A stretch of 62,655 nt of DNA from Acidimicrobiia bacterium (GCA_029210695.1 JARGFH010000019.1:1-62655), one strand, 5' to 3'; numbered from the stretch's first letter, positions 43,147 to 56,348 are shown. Notes: a model not told the origin generated them from the sequence alone. Program-made: numbers and translations.

Positions 43147-43304
43147 TCAACTGCTACCCAACCACCGATCGGCCGTAGAGATCGAAGCTACGCAATGGGC
43201 CGTCGAGAAGACGCGGTAGGGGTCCGATGCCAAGAGACCCGGCGCAATCGGGACTGCTTCGTGAATCGTCCGGCTGATGACGCGCAGGCACGGGTCACAC
43301 CACC
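43147..43304 (-). pseudogene. Displaced diverged copy of the last 158 bp of the terpene-cyclase-like gene (51448-51605)
   Basis: Manual alignment gives 14 substitutions, no indels, the same frame and the same stop. Encodes WCDPCLRVISRTIHEAVPIAPGLLASDPYRVFSTAHCVASISTADRWLGSS*. Confidence 0.9.
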
Positions 43305-49751: not shown

Positions 49752-51140
49752 TCAACGCTCGATTGTCATCACATACCCACCCGGGCCGTAGAACTCATCA
49801 ACCACCACGAGGAAGTAGGTGGCGTCGGTGTCGGCTCTGAAGCTCAGCCGGGCGTCGGTGCCGAACAGGCCGCCTCCCGAGCTGTCGTCCCGGCCGAGGA
49901 AGTCGGCCTCATTGCCCTCCAGGTCGATGATGATTTCCGGATCCATCAATACGGCACTCACCGTCACGGTGATCCGGTCTCCGGCCGACAAGTCGATGCG
50001 ATAGGTATCGATATCACCGGGATAGTCGGCGTACCCAACGACGGTCTGGCCCGGCACAACGACCGTCTCGTCGTCGGGGTCGGACAGCGGCCGCAACGGA
50101 AGGTTGCTCGTCAGCGTCACGTCGATCGGTACGGGTGCGAAGGAGTCGAGGGTCAGGAAGTATGGGCCGTCGAACGGTGCTACCACGGTCAGCGATTCTG
50201 TTCCAGTTTCGCCTTCGTCGGCCTCCCCTTCCAGGAACCCGTCGAAGGCGGTGAGCGCCACGTATACGTCACCATCGCTGGTGGCCTCTACCTGCAGTTC
50301 TTCGCCCGCCAGCATGTCCACCACCCATGTCTTCTCAACGAAGTAATGTTCAATCGGCCCGGTATAGCTGAGCTCGCCGGGCCCACCGGGGAAGGACCGG
50401 TCGGCGATACCGTCGGTGTCGCGGCCGGCCAGCATGTCGGCCAGCCTCTCCCGTACGTCGGCCGCAGATGCGGCTAGAGCGAAACCTTCCGATCCGAGGC
50501 CGGAGATGCCGATCACCGTTCCGTTGTCGTCGACCAGGGCACCGCCGCTCTGGCCGCCGGCGATCACCGCGTCGGTCTGCAGAAACTCGAGACCAAGCGC
50601 ATCGATTGTCCGCACCCGGGACAGGATCCCCCTCGTCAGGGTCGGCTGCGGATATTCCTCGACCTCACCGGGATAACCGATCAGATACAGCTCGCCGCCC
50701 ACTGCCAGCCCGTCCGGGTCGCCGAGCGTGACCGGTTCGGGCAGCCGCGGTGCGGCCCGGCTCACATCCACGATGGCCAGATCGGCGATCTCGTCGATGT
50801 GGGTGACGTCGGCATCGAGGAGTTCCGTCCCGTCCGGAAAAACCACCCTCACGTCGTCGTAGGGCCAGACCACATGAGCGTTGGTCACCAGATGCCACTC
50901 GTCGAACAGCACCCCCGAACCTGAACCCAGGTCGGTTTCGATGTACGCCAGGGCCGGCGACACAGTCTCGAAGACCTCCTGTGGGCTCAAAGCAGCCGAA
51001 ACGGTTGAGGTAGTGGTCGAGGTGGGGGGTACAGTTGTAGAGGGCCGGCGAACGATCGAAGTCGATACCGACGGCCCGCTGCAGGCCGCCAGTAACACCA
51101 TCATCCCGATCGCAAGCGCTCTTCTCACCGTCGTGTCCAT
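49752..51140 (-). CDS. Trypsin-like serine protease lipoprotein with two PPC-like domains
   Basis: Lipobox LLAAC; triad TNAHVV / DLA / GQSGG; DIDTYRIDL and DDSSGG PPC-type motifs. Confidence 0.88.
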   Translation of the reverse strand: MDTTVRRALAIGMMVLLAACSGPSVSTSIVRRPSTTVPPTSTTTSTVSAALSPQEVFETVSPALAYIETDLGSGSGVLFDEWHLVTNAHVVWPYDDVRVVFPDGTELLDADVTHIDEIADLAIVDVSRAAPRLPEPVTLGDPDGLAVGGELYLIGYPGEVEEYPQPTLTRGILSRVRTIDALGLEFLQTDAVIAGGQSGGALVDDNGTVIGISGLGSEGFALAASAADVRERLADMLAGRDTDGIADRSFPGGPGELSYTGPIEHYFVEKTWVVDMLAGEELQVEATSDGDVYVALTAFDGFLEGEADEGETGTESLTVVAPFDGPYFLTLDSFAPVPIDVTLTSNLPLRPLSDPDDETVVVPGQTVVGYADYPGDIDTYRIDLSAGDRITVTVSAVLMDPEIIIDLEGNEADFLGRDDSSGGGLFGTDARLSFRADTDATYFLVVVDEFYGPGGYVMTIER

Positions 51141-51284
51141 CTCCGGGTCCTTGGTTGACATCGGCCGGAGGCCGTCGTGTCTGAAGCAGCACACTATCCC
51201 GCCTGCGCCACGATCACGAGGGCTCGTTCGAGAGATCAAGAAGGACTGCGGGGGCCCGAACAGCTGATTGCCGCCGAGTCCTGG

Positions 51285-51447: not shown

Positions 51448-52461
51448 TCAACTGCTGCGCAACCACCGATGGGCCGCAGAGATCGAAGCTACGCAATGTG
51501 CCGTCGAGAAGACGCGGTAGGGGTCCGGTGCCACCAGACCCGGCGCGATCGGGGCCGCTTCGTGAACCGTCCGGCTGGTGACTCGCAGGCACGGGTCACA
51601 CCACCAGGAACCGTCCGTCAGTTGCTGGGCGAGGAGTCGCGTTACCCCGCGTTCGATCTGGTTTCGATCCACGATTCCGACCGCGGCGGCGAGAGCAAAC
51701 GCGGACTGGGGTGCTGAATGGGACTTCGCAAGCTCCTCCTCCGCTCGATGAGCAGGAGGTGGATCCGGCTCGATCTGGCGGTCCATCCACAGGCTGTATC
51801 CATACCCCGGCCACCAATACGAGGGGCGCTCCCATCGACGAGCGAACCGCTCCAGCCATTCGAGACATTTCCGGTACGGCGCCTCATCGCCCATCCGGCG
51901 GAAGTACCAGGCCGCCATCTGTGTCACGTCGGGGTGAGCGGCATGCCAGCCGGTCGTTTCGGCCGCGGCGTCGGTCACGTAGGTCGGGTAGGAGCCGTCC
52001 GACCGTTGACTGTCTTTCACCCACTCGTTGAGGAACCGTGGAGCCGACAACCCCTCGCTCTCGATCACCAGCAGCGCCTGGAGAGTCGAATCCAAGTCGC
52101 GACCGACTCTTCTGTTGTACCCCCAGCCCCCGTCGAGGGGTCCCACCTTCAGCAGATACTCCGCGGCCCGACTGCGGAGGTCGGCGAGTTCATCGACCCC
52201 CATCGTCACCAGCGCCACGTGCGCCGTGATCCACTCGACCGATGCTCCCGGCGTCAGCTGGAACCCACGGAGGCTGCCGTCGTCTCTCTGACACGACTGG
52301 AGGAATTCTGCTCCGAGCCGAACGGCCTCGGGCGCCACATCCGCCGACGGCACCGGCCAGGCAAGCGAATGACGTGGTGCCCGACTCCGCCAGGCCTGTA
52401 TCCGATCTGTCGAGGAGGCGAGGGCAAACCGGGCCATCCGCCACACCTCCGATGGAGTCAT
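51448..52461 (-). CDS. Single-domain class II terpene cyclase / prenyltransferase-squalene-cyclase repeat protein
   Basis: QW-type repeats QRDDGS, DGGWGY, QRSDGSY and QLTDGSW; acid motif DLDST. ATGA overlap with the upstream gene. Confidence 0.8.
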   Translation of the reverse strand: MTPSEVWRMARFALASSTDRIQAWRSRAPRHSLAWPVPSADVAPEAVRLGAEFLQSCQRDDGSLRGFQLTPGASVEWITAHVALVTMGVDELADLRSRAAEYLLKVGPLDGGWGYNRRVGRDLDSTLQALLVIESEGLSAPRFLNEWVKDSQRSDGSYPTYVTDAAAETTGWHAAHPDVTQMAAWYFRRMGDEAPYRKCLEWLERFARRWERPSYWWPGYGYSLWMDRQIEPDPPPAHRAEEELAKSHSAPQSAFALAAAVGIVDRNQIERGVTRLLAQQLTDGSWWCDPCLRVTSRTVHEAAPIAPGLVAPDPYRVFSTAHCVASISAAHRWLRSS

Positions 52462-53366
52462 CGCAGCAGCGCCTCGACGAAGCCCAAGGTGCGGGAGCGG
52501 GCAACGTGGTCGAGAGCCATCGCCTTGTGGATCGTGGCTTGCAGCTGCCGGCGCAGGTCGCTCCTGACCGGCCGGTGCGCCCGGCTGCTTGCCACCAGCT
52601 TCACCGCCTGGACCAGGTAGCACATCACATTCCAGCCCTGGGGGTTACCGAGGTATCTATTGGGCCGGAAACCGAGAAGGTCTTCGTCGAGATCCATCCA
52701 ATCGTCCCAGGCTGCCAGGAAACGACCGAGCGCCCGATGCATGTCGATGTGTGCTGGGTCGTTCGTGCCCATCAAACCGAGAAAGGCACTGGGCAGAGCC
52801 TTGGCCGGCATTGGGTCATCCGACTCTCCTACCTCGGAGCGATACATGGTCGACAGTAGATCGAGTGCCAGTGACATATGTCCCCGGTCGTTGCCCCATC
52901 GCCCGACGAACCCCGCCAGAGCCACGTGGAAGAGCTCGGTCACCGGTTCATGCTCGGACCCAACCGGCTCGAATCGCTGTCGCTCGGGATCATTCAACAC
53001 CCTCGCCAGATGAGGGGGCGCCAGCGATCCAACCAGGGCCGCCGATCGTTCGGGACCCCGGTCCAGCACCGAGTCGAAGACGGCGACCGCCAGATTGAAG
53101 GCCCCGGCGGCCGCATAGACCACGTCTTCGGTATCCGGTTCCGCAGTGATCCAGCAGGCCGCCGCACCCCACCCGGCAATCTGGCTGAGGCGCTTGGTGT
53201 CGCCCCGCTCCGGGACCGCCGCGGCAACTCGAGCAAGCAGCAGCTCGTCAAAGAGACGCTCGAAGGCGGGTGGTGGGGAGCACTCGGTGTCGACCGGCAC
53301 CACCCCGCGCAGCAATTCGAGTGTCTCCGAGCGTCCCGACCCGGAGACACCCAGTCTCCGACGCAA
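52458..53366 (-). CDS. Class I isoprenoid-synthase-fold protein (prenyltransferase or terpene synthase)
   Basis: First Asp-rich motif AVFDSVLD and second LGRFLAAWDDWMDLDED at isoprenyl-synthase-like spacing; all-helical. Start codon uncertain (TTG). Confidence 0.65.
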   Translation of the reverse strand: MRRRLGVSGSGRSETLELLRGVVPVDTECSPPPAFERLFDELLLARVAAAVPERGDTKRLSQIAGWGAAACWITAEPDTEDVVYAAAGAFNLAVAVFDSVLDRGPERSAALVGSLAPPHLARVLNDPERQRFEPVGSEHEPVTELFHVALAGFVGRWGNDRGHMSLALDLLSTMYRSEVGESDDPMPAKALPSAFLGLMGTNDPAHIDMHRALGRFLAAWDDWMDLDEDLLGFRPNRYLGNPQGWNVMCYLVQAVKLVASSRAHRPVRSDLRRQLQATIHKAMALDHVARSRTLGFVEALLR

Positions 53367-53377
53367 CCATCGACCGG

Positions 53378-53827
53378 CTACCAGATGCCGCTATCCGAGA
53401 ATGCGCTCGAGGCCGAGACGTTGCCGTTCAGCGTCTGGCGCTCGATCCGGACCGACACCGTCGACTCCACGCTATCGATGTCGAGGATGGCCCCACCACC
53501 AACGTCGGTCACCGAGTCGGCCGGAAGGCTGACGGTCACACCCACCGCCCACTCCTTCAGTTCACAACTCGATGCATTGGTGCAGGTCTTCTCTCTCGTT
53601 CCGGTTCCGGGGCCGGTTCCGCTGTACACGTTGCGGATGAAGATCGAATCAGCATTGCGTCGCACCCAGTCCGTCTTCTTGTTTCCCCAGACGTTGGTGG
53701 TCTCCTCCCGGTGGTAGACCTTCACTTCGCAGCCGATGCTTGAATAGAACAAGAGGTTGGTCTTGAACGCTTCAATCTCGGCTTTCCATTGGCCATCGCC
53801 GCTCAGGACCGATATCTCACTTGGCAC
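53378..53827 (-). CDS. Beta-rich hypothetical protein ending in Trp (149 aa)
   Basis: GTG 53827 with a GAAGGGGG SD overlaps the upstream stop. Has a CTNASSC Cys pair and ends ...FSDSGIW*. Confidence 0.75.
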   Translation of the reverse strand: MPSEISVLSGDGQWKAEIEAFKTNLLFYSSIGCEVKVYHREETTNVWGNKKTDWVRRNADSIFIRNVYSGTGPGTGTREKTCTNASSCELKEWAVGVTVSLPADSVTDVGGGAILDIDSVESTVSVRIERQTLNGNVSASSAFSDSGIW

Positions 53828-56348
53828 TGCGTTCCCCCTTCTCTTTGCTGTCATTATCCTTCGATTCCGAGTGGTGCCCGCCCGGGCCACAGTCGATGTC
53901 TTCACGGCCGGGGAGTTCGGGCACCCGCACCTCGTCGACGATGTCGATGCCCACCTCGAAGCGGGGGCTCAACTTGATGGCTACTGCGGCCAGGTCGAGC
54001 TCGAACACGGCTCCGTCGTCCTTTACCGCCTCCCGGTTCTGCTCCACCTTCGGCCCGAAGTCGAGCCGGGGGATCTCGACGTCGAGGTTGGGCAGCTCAA
54101 ACTCCACGCCGGGCTCCTCGCAGCCACATCGGTTGGTGTCGGGCACGTCGGCACGCCAGGTCCGTCCGCCCTGAAGACGCCAGTCCACTCTGTCTCCACC
54201 GTCCACCCAACGATCGAAGGTCCGAGAGTCGAACTCTCTCACCTCGACGCGTTCCGAACGACGAAAGGCAGTCGCCTCGACCGAGTGAAGCTTCCAACCC
54301 GCCGCGATCGACTCGCCGAGCGTTTCGAAGAAGGTGTCCTCGGCGTCGACGATGCCGGCGCCCACGTTGCCGGCGAAGTCCCTGAGCAGCTCGTCGCGGT
54401 CACCGGACGACTCGTCGTCATGTTCGTAGACGGCCACCGCCACCGAGATGAACCCGTAACGCTGCGGCACTCGCACCGTGAAGGTGCGATTGATCGACCG
54501 GTCTTCACCAGAGTCGACATCGCTGAAGGGGCCGGTCCGCCACGAGATCATCGGCTGGGTTCCACCGTGGGGGATAACCAACCCCAACACGAACGGCTCG
54601 TCGGAGTTGGAGAATCGATCCCAATCCGACTCCTCGATGCAATGAAGCTGCCTGAAGTGAACCCGGTACTCACGCCACGGCACACCATTGCCGAAGGTGC
54701 CGGTGGTGGAGGTGGCGTCCACATGTCCGTAGATGCGGTAGTCGCCTTCTGAACCGCCGTCACATCGCAACGAGAAGTTGTGTCTCCCGCCCGGACCAAG
54801 TGCATTGAGGGTGGCGGCGCTGATCATCTGGTGGTCCTTGTCGACGAAGTCGGCGTCGTAGCCCCATATGCCCTTGAAGAAGTCGACGACCGACTCCAAC
54901 ACTCCGACCACGGTGTCCCACAGCCCTTCGAGGGCGGCGAGGATGACGTCGCCGACGTTCGGGGCATCGTTGAGCAGGGTCACCGTGTTGGGAATACCGT
55001 CTATGGGTCCGATCACATAGGCGGCAGTGTCTCCACGCTCGAAGTCGTTGTGCCCGAGCAGGGTCTGAAACAGTGACCGGCTCGACGCCCCGCCGCTGGG
55101 CGGCACCCCGTGGTCGAGGATCGGGTACCGAACCCCGTTGACGAACGGCACGATGTCGGCGTCGGTGCCCGCATTCCCGGTATTGGCGGTTCGGATCTGG
55201 AGCCGCAGATACCAGTCCTCGGTGTCGTCGTGACCCTGAACCGGCGGATAGCTGCCGGCGGTGACGAACCGGTAGGGGATCTGAGCGAAGTCCTCCCACG
55301 GGTCGGTCGGGGTTTTGTAGTTGGCTCGCGACACGCCCTCGGTCTTCACCTGCTGCCAGAAGTCTTGGAGGCCTGCCTCGTCCATGACGTGGTCGAGGGT
55401 GTGAAGCCACTGACACGAGGTTCGATACGCCAGCTCATAGGCGATATCAAAGGCCTCCCGGCCGGTGATTTCCAGGCCCCTCACGTCCACACCAAGTTCC
55501 GCCTGCCAGTGGCTGTCGACGTTGATGCCCGGCTCGACCCACAGGATGTCGTCGGGCAGATCGATACCACCCACGTCGGGTGGGGTGAGCGGCACCGCCT
55601 CCTGGCACTGTTTGAACCACCGGCACAGCGAGCCCTGCGAGACGGGTGAGGCGGCGTGACAGATCACCGACATGAGACGACGGCCGACCGGGCCGATGCG
55701 GTTGAGGATCGTGCAGGCGAAAAGAAACGCCCCATGGGGTTTGATTCCCAGGTGGTGCGGCAGTTCGTACGAGCCGGTCCAGAGGCTCAACTTCGCCCGG
55801 TCGGCGGGATCGACTTCGAACCAGGTGCAGTTCCTCAGTCTTTTGTCGTCGATCCAGTTGGAGTGGGAGTAGAAGTCCTGCATGGCATGCAGTGAGACGC
55901 CGACGGCGTTGTGGGCCATCCGAATACGCTGCTCCCTCGGGGCGCTGGAGGCGTGGCCGAGCCAGATCAGCGCGGCCGCGGTGCCCGACAGGTAGCGACG
56001 CCACATGGCCCGGACCGACTCGGGGTGGAACAGGTCGTCGAAATGGACCTTGATGAGTTCGCTTTGCGACGACATCACCACCGGGAGACGTCCCGGCCCT
56101 CCGCCGTTGGCGAGGTCAAACCACCAGAGTGGGTTGTAGAGATAGGAGTCGACGTAGTCGGCGTGGAAAGCGAGGGCGTTCTCCGCCTCTTCGGACCAGC
56201 CGGAGCCCCGGGCCGCCATTCTAGTCAAACCTTCGTGATGCCAGTTGTCGGGGCCGGGGGCGGCGCCGAGCGGATCCTCCCCGCCGAACTGTGGGAGCGC
56301 GGCGGCGTAGACGGCACCAACGCCGAGCAGATGTGTGAACCAACCCAT
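53817..56348 (-). CDS. HET-C/VWA7-like Zn-phospholipase-C-superfamily protein with PLAT and C2-like domains
   Basis: AGGAGG SD and short hydrophobic leader; WHHE, HFDD and LHAMQDFYSHSNW Zn-ligand motifs; PLAT pattern YLRLQIRTANTGNAGTDA...NDFERGD; C-terminal SDEPFV...DVDSG...YEHD beta domain. Confidence 0.8.
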   Translation of the reverse strand: MGWFTHLLGVGAVYAAALPQFGGEDPLGAAPGPDNWHHEGLTRMAARGSGWSEEAENALAFHADYVDSYLYNPLWWFDLANGGGPGRLPVVMSSQSELIKVHFDDLFHPESVRAMWRRYLSGTAAALIWLGHASSAPREQRIRMAHNAVGVSLHAMQDFYSHSNWIDDKRLRNCTWFEVDPADRAKLSLWTGSYELPHHLGIKPHGAFLFACTILNRIGPVGRRLMSVICHAASPVSQGSLCRWFKQCQEAVPLTPPDVGGIDLPDDILWVEPGINVDSHWQAELGVDVRGLEITGREAFDIAYELAYRTSCQWLHTLDHVMDEAGLQDFWQQVKTEGVSRANYKTPTDPWEDFAQIPYRFVTAGSYPPVQGHDDTEDWYLRLQIRTANTGNAGTDADIVPFVNGVRYPILDHGVPPSGGASSRSLFQTLLGHNDFERGDTAAYVIGPIDGIPNTVTLLNDAPNVGDVILAALEGLWDTVVGVLESVVDFFKGIWGYDADFVDKDHQMISAATLNALGPGGRHNFSLRCDGGSEGDYRIYGHVDATSTTGTFGNGVPWREYRVHFRQLHCIEESDWDRFSNSDEPFVLGLVIPHGGTQPMISWRTGPFSDVDSGEDRSINRTFTVRVPQRYGFISVAVAVYEHDDESSGDRDELLRDFAGNVGAGIVDAEDTFFETLGESIAAGWKLHSVEATAFRRSERVEVREFDSRTFDRWVDGGDRVDWRLQGGRTWRADVPDTNRCGCEEPGVEFELPNLDVEIPRLDFGPKVEQNREAVKDDGAVFELDLAAVAIKLSPRFEVGIDIVDEVRVPELPGREDIDCGPGGHHSESKDNDSKEKGERSAK

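Follow-up and report, generated by a model that had tools for sequence, protein, structure and literature searches.

ComQ, PalQ and ChrPC-P are transferases with a class I, trans-isoprenyl diphosphate synthase-like (trans-IDS-like) fold, and all three target a Trp residue of a ribosomal peptide, which in the case of PalQ needs to be C-terminal (PMC13290415). In ChrPC and NctPC, an MstE-like C domain cyclises the prenyl group that the P domain has put on the peptide Trp, and ComQ, PalQ, ChrPC-P and Ord1 share a Gln directly before their second Asp motif (PMC13290415). PalX, the product modified by PalQ, has a conserved C-terminal Trp, which an AlphaFold model places in the PalQ active site (PMC10853753). 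MstE itself carries a DxD acid motif in place of DxDD and acts on a small molecule (PMC12414744). Cyclic-terpenoid modification of ribosomal peptides has been described only since 2024, on short leader-bearing peptides. Here, we report a related arrangement in a 62,655-nt stretch of an Acidimicrobiia bacterium (GCA_029210695.1 JARGFH010000019.1:1-62655; the whole stretch is hereafter called the window), in which the block at positions 51448-56348 contains four co-oriented, tightly packed open reading frames (ORFs), g1 to g4, all on the minus strand. Three of them, g2-g3-g4, form a module that recurs in several phyla, and we tentatively favour a reading in which g3 prenylates Trp149 of g2 and g4 cyclises the attached prenyl group, which would make the module a split, protein-sized analogue of the ChrPC and PalQ systems.

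The four genes are as follows.

g1, 53817-56348, minus strand: 843 aa, carries HAMQDFYSHSNW; HET-C/VWA7_N-like, with His/Asp motifs; C-terminal half uncharacterised
g2, 53378-53827, minus strand: 149 aa, GTG start preceded by AAGGGGG; predicted cytoplasmic beta-sandwich with a Trp-ended tail
g3, 52458-53366, minus strand: 302 aa, TTG start, carries DDWMD; predicted non-canonical class I isoprenoid fold
g4, 51448-52461, minus strand: 337 aa, carries DLDST; predicted single-domain (beta-only) MstE-type class II terpene cyclase

Read directly from the DNA, g1 and g2 overlap by 11 bp, g2 and g3 stand 11 nt apart, and g3 and g4 overlap at an ATGA. An earlier first-pass annotation, made from the sequence alone, had described four co-oriented genes with these overlaps and this gap, and the ORF coordinates and junctions agree with it; the 843-aa g1 with HAMQDFYSHSNW, the 149-aa g2, the DDxxD of g3 (here DDWMD) and the DLDST of g4 that it had listed are all present. 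A consensus scan, itself a weak test, detected neither a sigma-70-like promoter nor, on the minus strand, a terminator-like site within the block. The genome is GC-rich (~64%), and antisense ORFs are therefore open too. Two plus-strand ORFs (51718-52620 and 52878-53717) were rejected as genes on the grounds of the minus-strand relatives, their conserved lengths and their low ratios of nonsynonymous to synonymous substitution (dN/dS). The minus-strand frames are taken as the real genes because relatives of matching length exist in databases and because dN/dS, measured against the metagenome relative L007, is low (0.13, 0.09, 0.26 and 0.23 for g1, g2, g3 and g4, respectively); all four are under purifying selection. 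None of g1-g4 matched a defence-system model in a PADLOC scan.

Six genomes, from at least three phyla, carry g2, g3 and g4 tightly spaced and in the same order: the window, its close relative L007, a Gammaproteobacteria metagenome-assembled genome (MAG; L009), an Actinomycetes MAG (L010), a Chitinophagaceae MAG with no gene upstream (L018) and a Sphingomonas MAG (L021). This count merges duplicates, L008 being the same organism as L007, L016 the same as L009 and L017 the same as L010. The genes flanking the triad differ among the six genomes, and no gene besides g2, g3 and g4 is common to all six loci; the module thus lacks machinery for making a small aromatic acceptor. The gene g1 stands beside the triad in two of the six genomes only, the window and L007, the latter keeping the window's g1/g2 arrangement. 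None of g2, g3 and g4 was found near relatives of g1 at any of six genome loci, whose contigs belong to Acidimicrobiales, Nitriliruptoria, Chloroflexia, Streptosporangiaceae and other MAGs. Among 400 other sampled genomes of the window's order, g1 was present in six and g2 in none, and neither gene was found in six genomes of the same genus (56-97% complete). Since the triad mostly occurs without g1, and relatives of g1 occur without the triad, the functional unit is a three-gene module beside a lineage-specific neighbour, g1, and not a four-gene system. The first-pass annotation had tied its proposal to co-occurrence of the two terpenoid-fold genes with their partners; this holds for the small gene, in all six genomes, and fails for the HET-C-like gene, which is present in two of the six. 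Whichever biochemical reading is preferred, the unit of function is corrected from four genes to three.

The best-conserved member of the module is g2, with a mean column identity of 67%, compared with 40% for g4 and 30% for g3. Its 44 relatives (55-100% identity) are mostly exactly 149 aa long, and its AlphaFold2 (AF2) model, with a predicted local distance difference test score (pLDDT) of 82.1, is an all-beta, ten-strand sandwich, in line with the earlier description of a 149-aa beta-rich protein. The C-terminal residue is W in 41 of the 44 relatives and the sequence ends in WG in the other three, so that the tail Trp is kept in 44/44; even the divergent g2 of the Sphingomonas MAG ends in DSSIW. 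The last nine residues have an entropy of 0.68 against a protein average of 0.97, and residues 142-149 have pLDDT <50 in the model, which predicts a tail that is flexible or disordered yet conserved. Database searches gave no family for g2 in Pfam, NCBIfam or PADLOC, no PDB match at E<=0.001 with Foldseek and a best profile match of E 1.3. The VIA-align matches were generic beta-sandwiches within the chance range (MspA rim, Z 8.5; macroglobulin domains, ~7; DUF4848, 6.2), and the nearest Atlas feature clusters were all unnamed. A distant g2-like domain (35% identity) was found in a 231-aa protein of a Pseudomonadota MAG (L019 3043-3738, plus strand), which carries a signal peptide, lacks the terminal Trp, adjoins a 1106-aa gene and has no g3 or g4 beside it; judged by this similarity, the g2 fold exists as an exported domain as well.

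The class I isoprenoid fold that the first-pass annotation had assigned to g3 was recovered by every structural comparison made, namely the AF2 model, VIA-align, Foldseek and Atlas. The AF2 model is all-helical (pLDDT 96.3; predicted template modelling score, pTM, 0.93), and its top VIA-align matches were epi-isozizaene synthase (3kb9; Z 15.4, root-mean-square deviation 3.4, 253 aligned residues), heptaprenyl diphosphate synthase (5h9d; Z 15.3) and the class IB synthase BalTS (5yo8; Z 14.9). All 50 VIA-align matches listed have the class I isoprenoid fold, and 111 chains reached Z>=8. The Foldseek matches share this fold too, Ord1 (9v4h) being among them (TM-score 0.39), and the Atlas model of g3 matched polyprenyl synthetase, terpene synthase and SQS_PSY clusters. 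By sequence, g3 itself has no match in Pfam or NCBIfam, and its profile gave just E 0.2-0.4 matches in the PDB, located at the second Asp motif of farnesyl diphosphate (FPP) synthases. A HMMER search of 1.84 billion proteins found 95 family representatives, and no close relatives were recovered from genomes with g3 as the sole query. Among 67 aligned family members, none matched polyprenyl_synt, Terpene_syn_C_2, SQS_PSY or DUF2600 at E<=1, and DUF5685 matched three (best E 0.0024). The 67 sequences were too divergent for a pattern search, for which a 20-sequence subset was used. G67, D98, K189, P192, D221, D222, D225, D229 and N236 are invariant in the 67, and the motifs read FD(S/T)xxD for the first and DDWxDLxxD...N for the second, the latter being complete, as D221, D222, D225 and D229 are all invariant, and lying where helix 204-224 ends.

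The partner enzyme, g4, is a class II cyclase-like protein with a probable alpha/alpha toroid, as had been proposed, and the evidence lies in profile matches to solved monodomain cyclases. Pfam gave a weak squalene-cyclase repeat match (SQHop_cyclase_C, E 1.1e-6), and a profile of 37 relatives matched 8pak (1.3e-26), 8paj (2e-26), 6ij1 (1.1e-22) and MstE (6sbb, 1.1e-19) in the PDB, with the alignment spanning residues 11-352 of 8pak and 19-363 of MstE. D122 and D124 are invariant in the 37 sequences and align with the DAD of MstE, 8pak and 8paj. With MstE (6SBB), 8PAK, 8PAJ and 6IJ1, g4 shares the size of a single beta-domain, the aligned DxD, and the GW..H and YWW motifs; its 77 relatives have lengths of 218-450 aa. 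By these alignments, g4 has the MstE-type features tested, namely a single alpha/alpha-toroid domain and a DxD acid motif. MstE differs in its substrate, a free prenylated aromatic acid that a UbiA-type transferase of the membrane supplies, and the g4 family has a conserved Cys pair (C288/C291) of its own. This pair (WxCxPCLRVT; C288 invariant, C291 nearly so) is missing in MstE and in 8pak/8paj, and is a candidate disulfide or metal site. Our literature search found no paper naming 8PAK or 8PAJ as such cyclases.

We propose Trp149 prenylation followed by cyclisation because the triad copies the published logic in split form and because one natural fusion copies the P-C architecture. In this scheme, g3 would bind a polyprenyl diphosphate from the cell pool through its Asp-rich motifs, ionise it and move the prenyl chain onto the indole of g2's invariant C-terminal Trp, which would be presented on a flexible, conserved tail protruding from the beta-sandwich. 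With its DxD acid, g4 would then cyclise the attached chain by protonating the chain's terminal double bond, and the product would be a folded 149-aa protein bearing a C-terminal polycyclic terpenoid, which would probably serve as a membrane anchor or a membrane-active tag. Gene order and its conservation, the folds, the sequence motifs, the conserved Trp tail and one natural g3-g4 fusion are observed; which residue or molecule accepts the prenyl group, how long the chain is and all of the chemistry are what we infer. The likeness to ChrPC and NctPC is that a class-I-fold prenyltransferase and an MstE-like single-domain cyclase lie beside a gene for a Trp-bearing polypeptide, g2 being directly upstream of g3 in all six genomes. 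The fusion, P0180 (649 aa), is one of the 95 g3 representatives; its residues 63-296 match g3 (HMMER), its residues 333-649 are 39% identical to g4 (E 1e-52), and it has the architecture of the P-C maturases. In PalQ/PalX and ComQ/ComX, likewise, a class-I-fold enzyme puts a prenyl group on a Trp in the polypeptide that a neighbouring gene encodes, and PalX shares with g2 a conserved C-terminal Trp (PMC10853753).

The differences from these systems are also clear. The genes g3 and g4 are usually separate, in contrast to ChrPC, which was compared by its description rather than its sequence; g2 is a folded 149-aa beta-sandwich instead of a leader-plus-core peptide; and the Trp of g2 is C-terminal, whereas ChrPC modifies an internal Trp. 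PalX, a precursor of the NHLP type, is cut down to an octapeptide (PMC10853753), whereas g2 has no NHLP match, and PalQ has no cyclase partner. Both ChrPC and PalQ further have the Gln before the second Asp motif that g3 lacks. The first-pass annotation knew of no characterised system combining these parts, a statement that has to be narrowed, as ChrPC (Hubrich et al., Chem 2024, via PMC13290415) joins a class I prenyltransferase and an MstE-like cyclase on a peptide Trp. Our literature search, which covered neither the primary ChrPC paper nor supplements, found no description of the g2-g3-g4 triad or of a protein-sized acceptor. The earlier idea of lipidation survives with a change of target, the likely lipidated protein being the 149-aa g2 and not the HET-C-like g1.

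Several observations weigh against lipidation of g2. First, g2 is folded and conserved over its full length, unlike known precursors of RiPPs (peptides made by the ribosome and modified after translation): all 149 residues are conserved and form one beta-sandwich where a leader and a variable core would be expected, and no NHLP or other RiPP leader family was found in it in Pfam or NCBIfam. W47, W54 and W93 are further invariant residues, and an acceptor, should there be one, could be a Trp other than W149. Neither a protease nor an exporter accompanies the triad as a conserved gene. On the enzyme side, the first motif of g3 is cut to one invariant Asp, D98, at the end of helix 81-101 (D102 is frequent); its second motif is similar to the one in class IB terpene synthases, which release free hydrocarbons (PMC5939612); and transferases are not told apart from synthases and cyclases by comparing structures, the Z scores being tied within 1. 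The Gln directly before the second Asp motif is found in 0/67 g3 members, Trp being the commonest residue there, followed by Leu. In summary, g3 has the class I fold, belongs to no curated sequence family and lacks one feature of the Trp transferases; with the fold present and the Gln missing, it resembles these enzymes in action at most. Finally, a Chitinophagaceae MAG (L020 5911-12463) carries a g3-family gene without g2 or g4; after it come genes for a lipocalin-like lipoprotein, an unknown protein of 162 aa and a resistance-nodulation-division (RND) efflux pump.

If the folded-protein acceptor is true, prenyl-plus-cyclise chemistry would extend to bacterial protein lipidation, and the module would be a compact, genetically encoded route to polycyclic terpenoids on a C-terminal tag. 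It would also define two enzyme families without a Pfam home, g3 being familyless and the g4 subfamily being annotated merely as a squalene-cyclase repeat protein. A bolder version of this idea, which we consider possible but less likely than not, is that a novel type of lipoprotein is made by bacteria from several phyla, in which the C-terminal Trp of a folded cytoplasmic beta-sandwich is C-prenylated by a non-canonical class-I-fold transferase and the chain is cyclised in place by a monodomain class II cyclase into a sterol- or hopanoid-like polycyclic anchor bound covalently to the protein, with the products of the varying upstream genes (the HET-C-like phosphoesterase, a Vps62-like protein and others) as cargo or partners.

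The best-surviving alternative to lipidation of g2 is a free terpenoid pathway, which we regard as possible without expecting it to be correct. Here, g3 would be a class I/IB-type synthase that removes the diphosphate of a long prenyl diphosphate, g4 would cyclise the product and g2 would help as a binding, carrier or scaffold protein for this hydrophobic compound, with YtpB and SqhC in Bacillus, or MstE acting on a prenylated aromatic acid, as the precedent. The class IB synthases BalTS and YtpB have a class I fold without canonical motifs, and the spacing of their second Asp motif is that of g3 (PMC5939612): compared by eye, DDWMDLDED of g3 fits DY(F,L,W)IDxxED except at position 2, and the resemblance extends to the invariant DDWxDLxxD of the family. 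YtpB/SqhC likewise pairs a class I enzyme with a downstream class II cyclase (PMC5939612). BalTS is among the tied top structural matches of g3, the named Atlas cluster nearest to g3 by features is tetraprenyl-beta-curcumene synthase (DUF2600; score 0.90), and the substrate of MstE is itself a small molecule (PMC12414744). The L020 gene, with its lipocalin-like and RND pump neighbours, counts in favour of this alternative as well. Against these points, the first motif of class IB, DYLDNLxD, is missing in g3, and neither DUF2600 nor any terpene synthase Pfam family was matched by the 67 members at the threshold above. SqhC is a two-domain cyclase, and the YtpB/SqhC system has no small-protein partner. 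On this reading it is difficult to see why a carrier should be far better conserved than both enzymes and keep its Trp invariant on a C-terminal tail predicted to be disordered, and the module contains no genes for a prenyl-diphosphate synthase or an aromatic acceptor. The lipocalin-like protein of L020 may be unrelated, since its lipoprotein-type signal means that it is exported. Should this alternative be true, the locus would represent an undescribed pathway of a class I and a monodomain class II enzyme with an obligate small-protein partner.

A four-gene system, in which g1 would be integral either as a lipidated effector or toxin or as a phosphoesterase acting on a prenyl-phosphate or lipid, is unlikely, because g1 and the triad are far oftener apart than together. 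The 11-bp g1/g2 overlap with its good ribosome-binding site, kept in L007, speaks for it, as does the presence of large uncharacterised genes directly upstream of g2 in three other triad genomes: one of 452 aa in L009; 148, 286 and 260 aa in L010; and 553 and 406 aa in L021. Part of g1 (residues 480-546) is weakly similar to a local stretch of the L009 protein (pairwise E 6e-4), and in L021 an RHS-repeat gene is found downstream of the triad. One shared family for the upstream proteins was considered and rejected, all-against-all BLASTP having given this single weak pair and the proteins being otherwise mutually unrelated. Moreover, four of the six triad genomes have no g1, L018 has nothing upstream, none of the six g1-relative loci contains g2, g3 or g4, the six same-order genomes that hold g1 are without g2 like the other members of the 400, and g1 itself has no conserved terminal Trp. 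In the Sphingomonas MAG, the proteins preceding the triad (406 and 553 aa) are uncharacterised, the RHS-repeat protein follows (L021 2379-5224 and 9271-12726), and the 553-aa protein has a transmembrane stretch.

As for g1 itself, Pfam VWA7_N matched residues 136-167 (E 8.8e-7; 29.0 bits against a cut-off of 27.5), and Het-C was matched at E 0.14, under its cut-off. Five relatives scored 26.8-34.3 bits with VWA7_N, one of them (26.8) under the cut-off, and the matches in g1 and its relatives span just 26-45 residues of the 230-position profile. The matched part is the His/Asp-rich motif region HAxQDFYSHSNW, and His/Asp residues such as H62, D64, H102, D105, H154, D158 and H162 are invariant in six aligned relatives. 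The likeness to HET-C/VWA7_N proteins (PF07217, PF25107) thus consists of this motif region; the difference is that the g1 match covers ~30 residues, while the ~700 residues outside it show no detectable family. The first-pass annotation had credited g1 with PLAT and C2-like domains and with the zinc phospholipase C (Zn-PLC) plus PLAT architecture of clostridial alpha-toxin. In a comparison made by sequence alone, neither was detectable: no Zn-PLC, PLAT or C2 match was found with Pfam at E<=1 in g1, in its fragments 360-480 and 481-843 or in five relatives, and sequence and profile searches gave no PDB relatives. We regard g1 as a HET-C-like putative metal-dependent phosphoesterase, which would be co-expressed with the module in this lineage while standing outside the conserved machinery.

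The weakest alternative, in which g3 and g4 form a complex whose substrate is encoded elsewhere and g2 belongs to it in another role than substrate (as specificity factor, regulator or inhibitor, for example), agrees with a folded g2 conserved at full length and with its single copy in the window's 3.9-Mb, 97.85%-complete assembly, but it is improbable, as it leaves the invariant terminal Trp on a disordered tail without reason and no pointer to an unlinked substrate was found.

The triad is probably a rare, patchily distributed module acquired by horizontal transfer, because g2 is found in none of the 400 same-order genomes and because a duplicated 3' end of g4 lies at the edge of the module:

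Degenerate duplicate of the g4 3' end, 43150-43302, minus strand: last 51 codons of g4, ~8.1 kb downstream

The duplicate has 84% amino acid identity to g4 residues 287-337 (tblastn, E 8.6e-23), its DNA similarity extends over ~165 bases including the stop codon, and it matches the g4 hidden Markov model (HMM) at E 1.1e-14. It lies directly after a DUF4386 gene and makes an imperfect direct repeat with the 3' end of g4, enclosing peptidase, FIST, histidine kinase, hydrolase, TetR and DUF4386 genes, an arrangement that points to insertion or rearrangement of the segment. At 3.9 Mb, the window's assembly exceeds those of the six same-genus genomes (1.4-2.9 Mb) by ~1 Mb.

Partial or more distant versions of the module were found elsewhere. 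A Solirubrobacteraceae MAG (L011 5643-8206) has g3 and g4 split over two to three frames and no g2, and represents either a decaying copy or assembly frameshifts. A g4-like gene stands alone on a 5-kb contig (L013), and more distant cyclases occur in other contexts at three loci (L012, L014 and L015). At the second of these, in Nocardia (L014 5666-7915), a distant g4-like monodomain cyclase lies beside a divergently oriented gene for a 347-aa protein with a weak match to Trp_DMAT (ABBA prenyltransferase; E 0.005), and could be another prenyltransferase-cyclase pairing. At the third, in a Limnochordia MAG (L015 5924-8790), a 652-aa protein consists of an unassigned 340-aa N-terminal part and a g4-like cyclase domain, and its gene is followed by a PhyH-type dioxygenase gene. 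In the window, a 495-aa trypsin-like peptidase with a PPC domain (49752-51239, minus strand) is encoded ~200 bp downstream of g4 and in the same direction; the L007 triad has no such gene downstream. PADLOC models, RT-Protease_XI (E 5e-16) among them, match the protease part of this peptidase, which probably reflects merely a shared protease domain.

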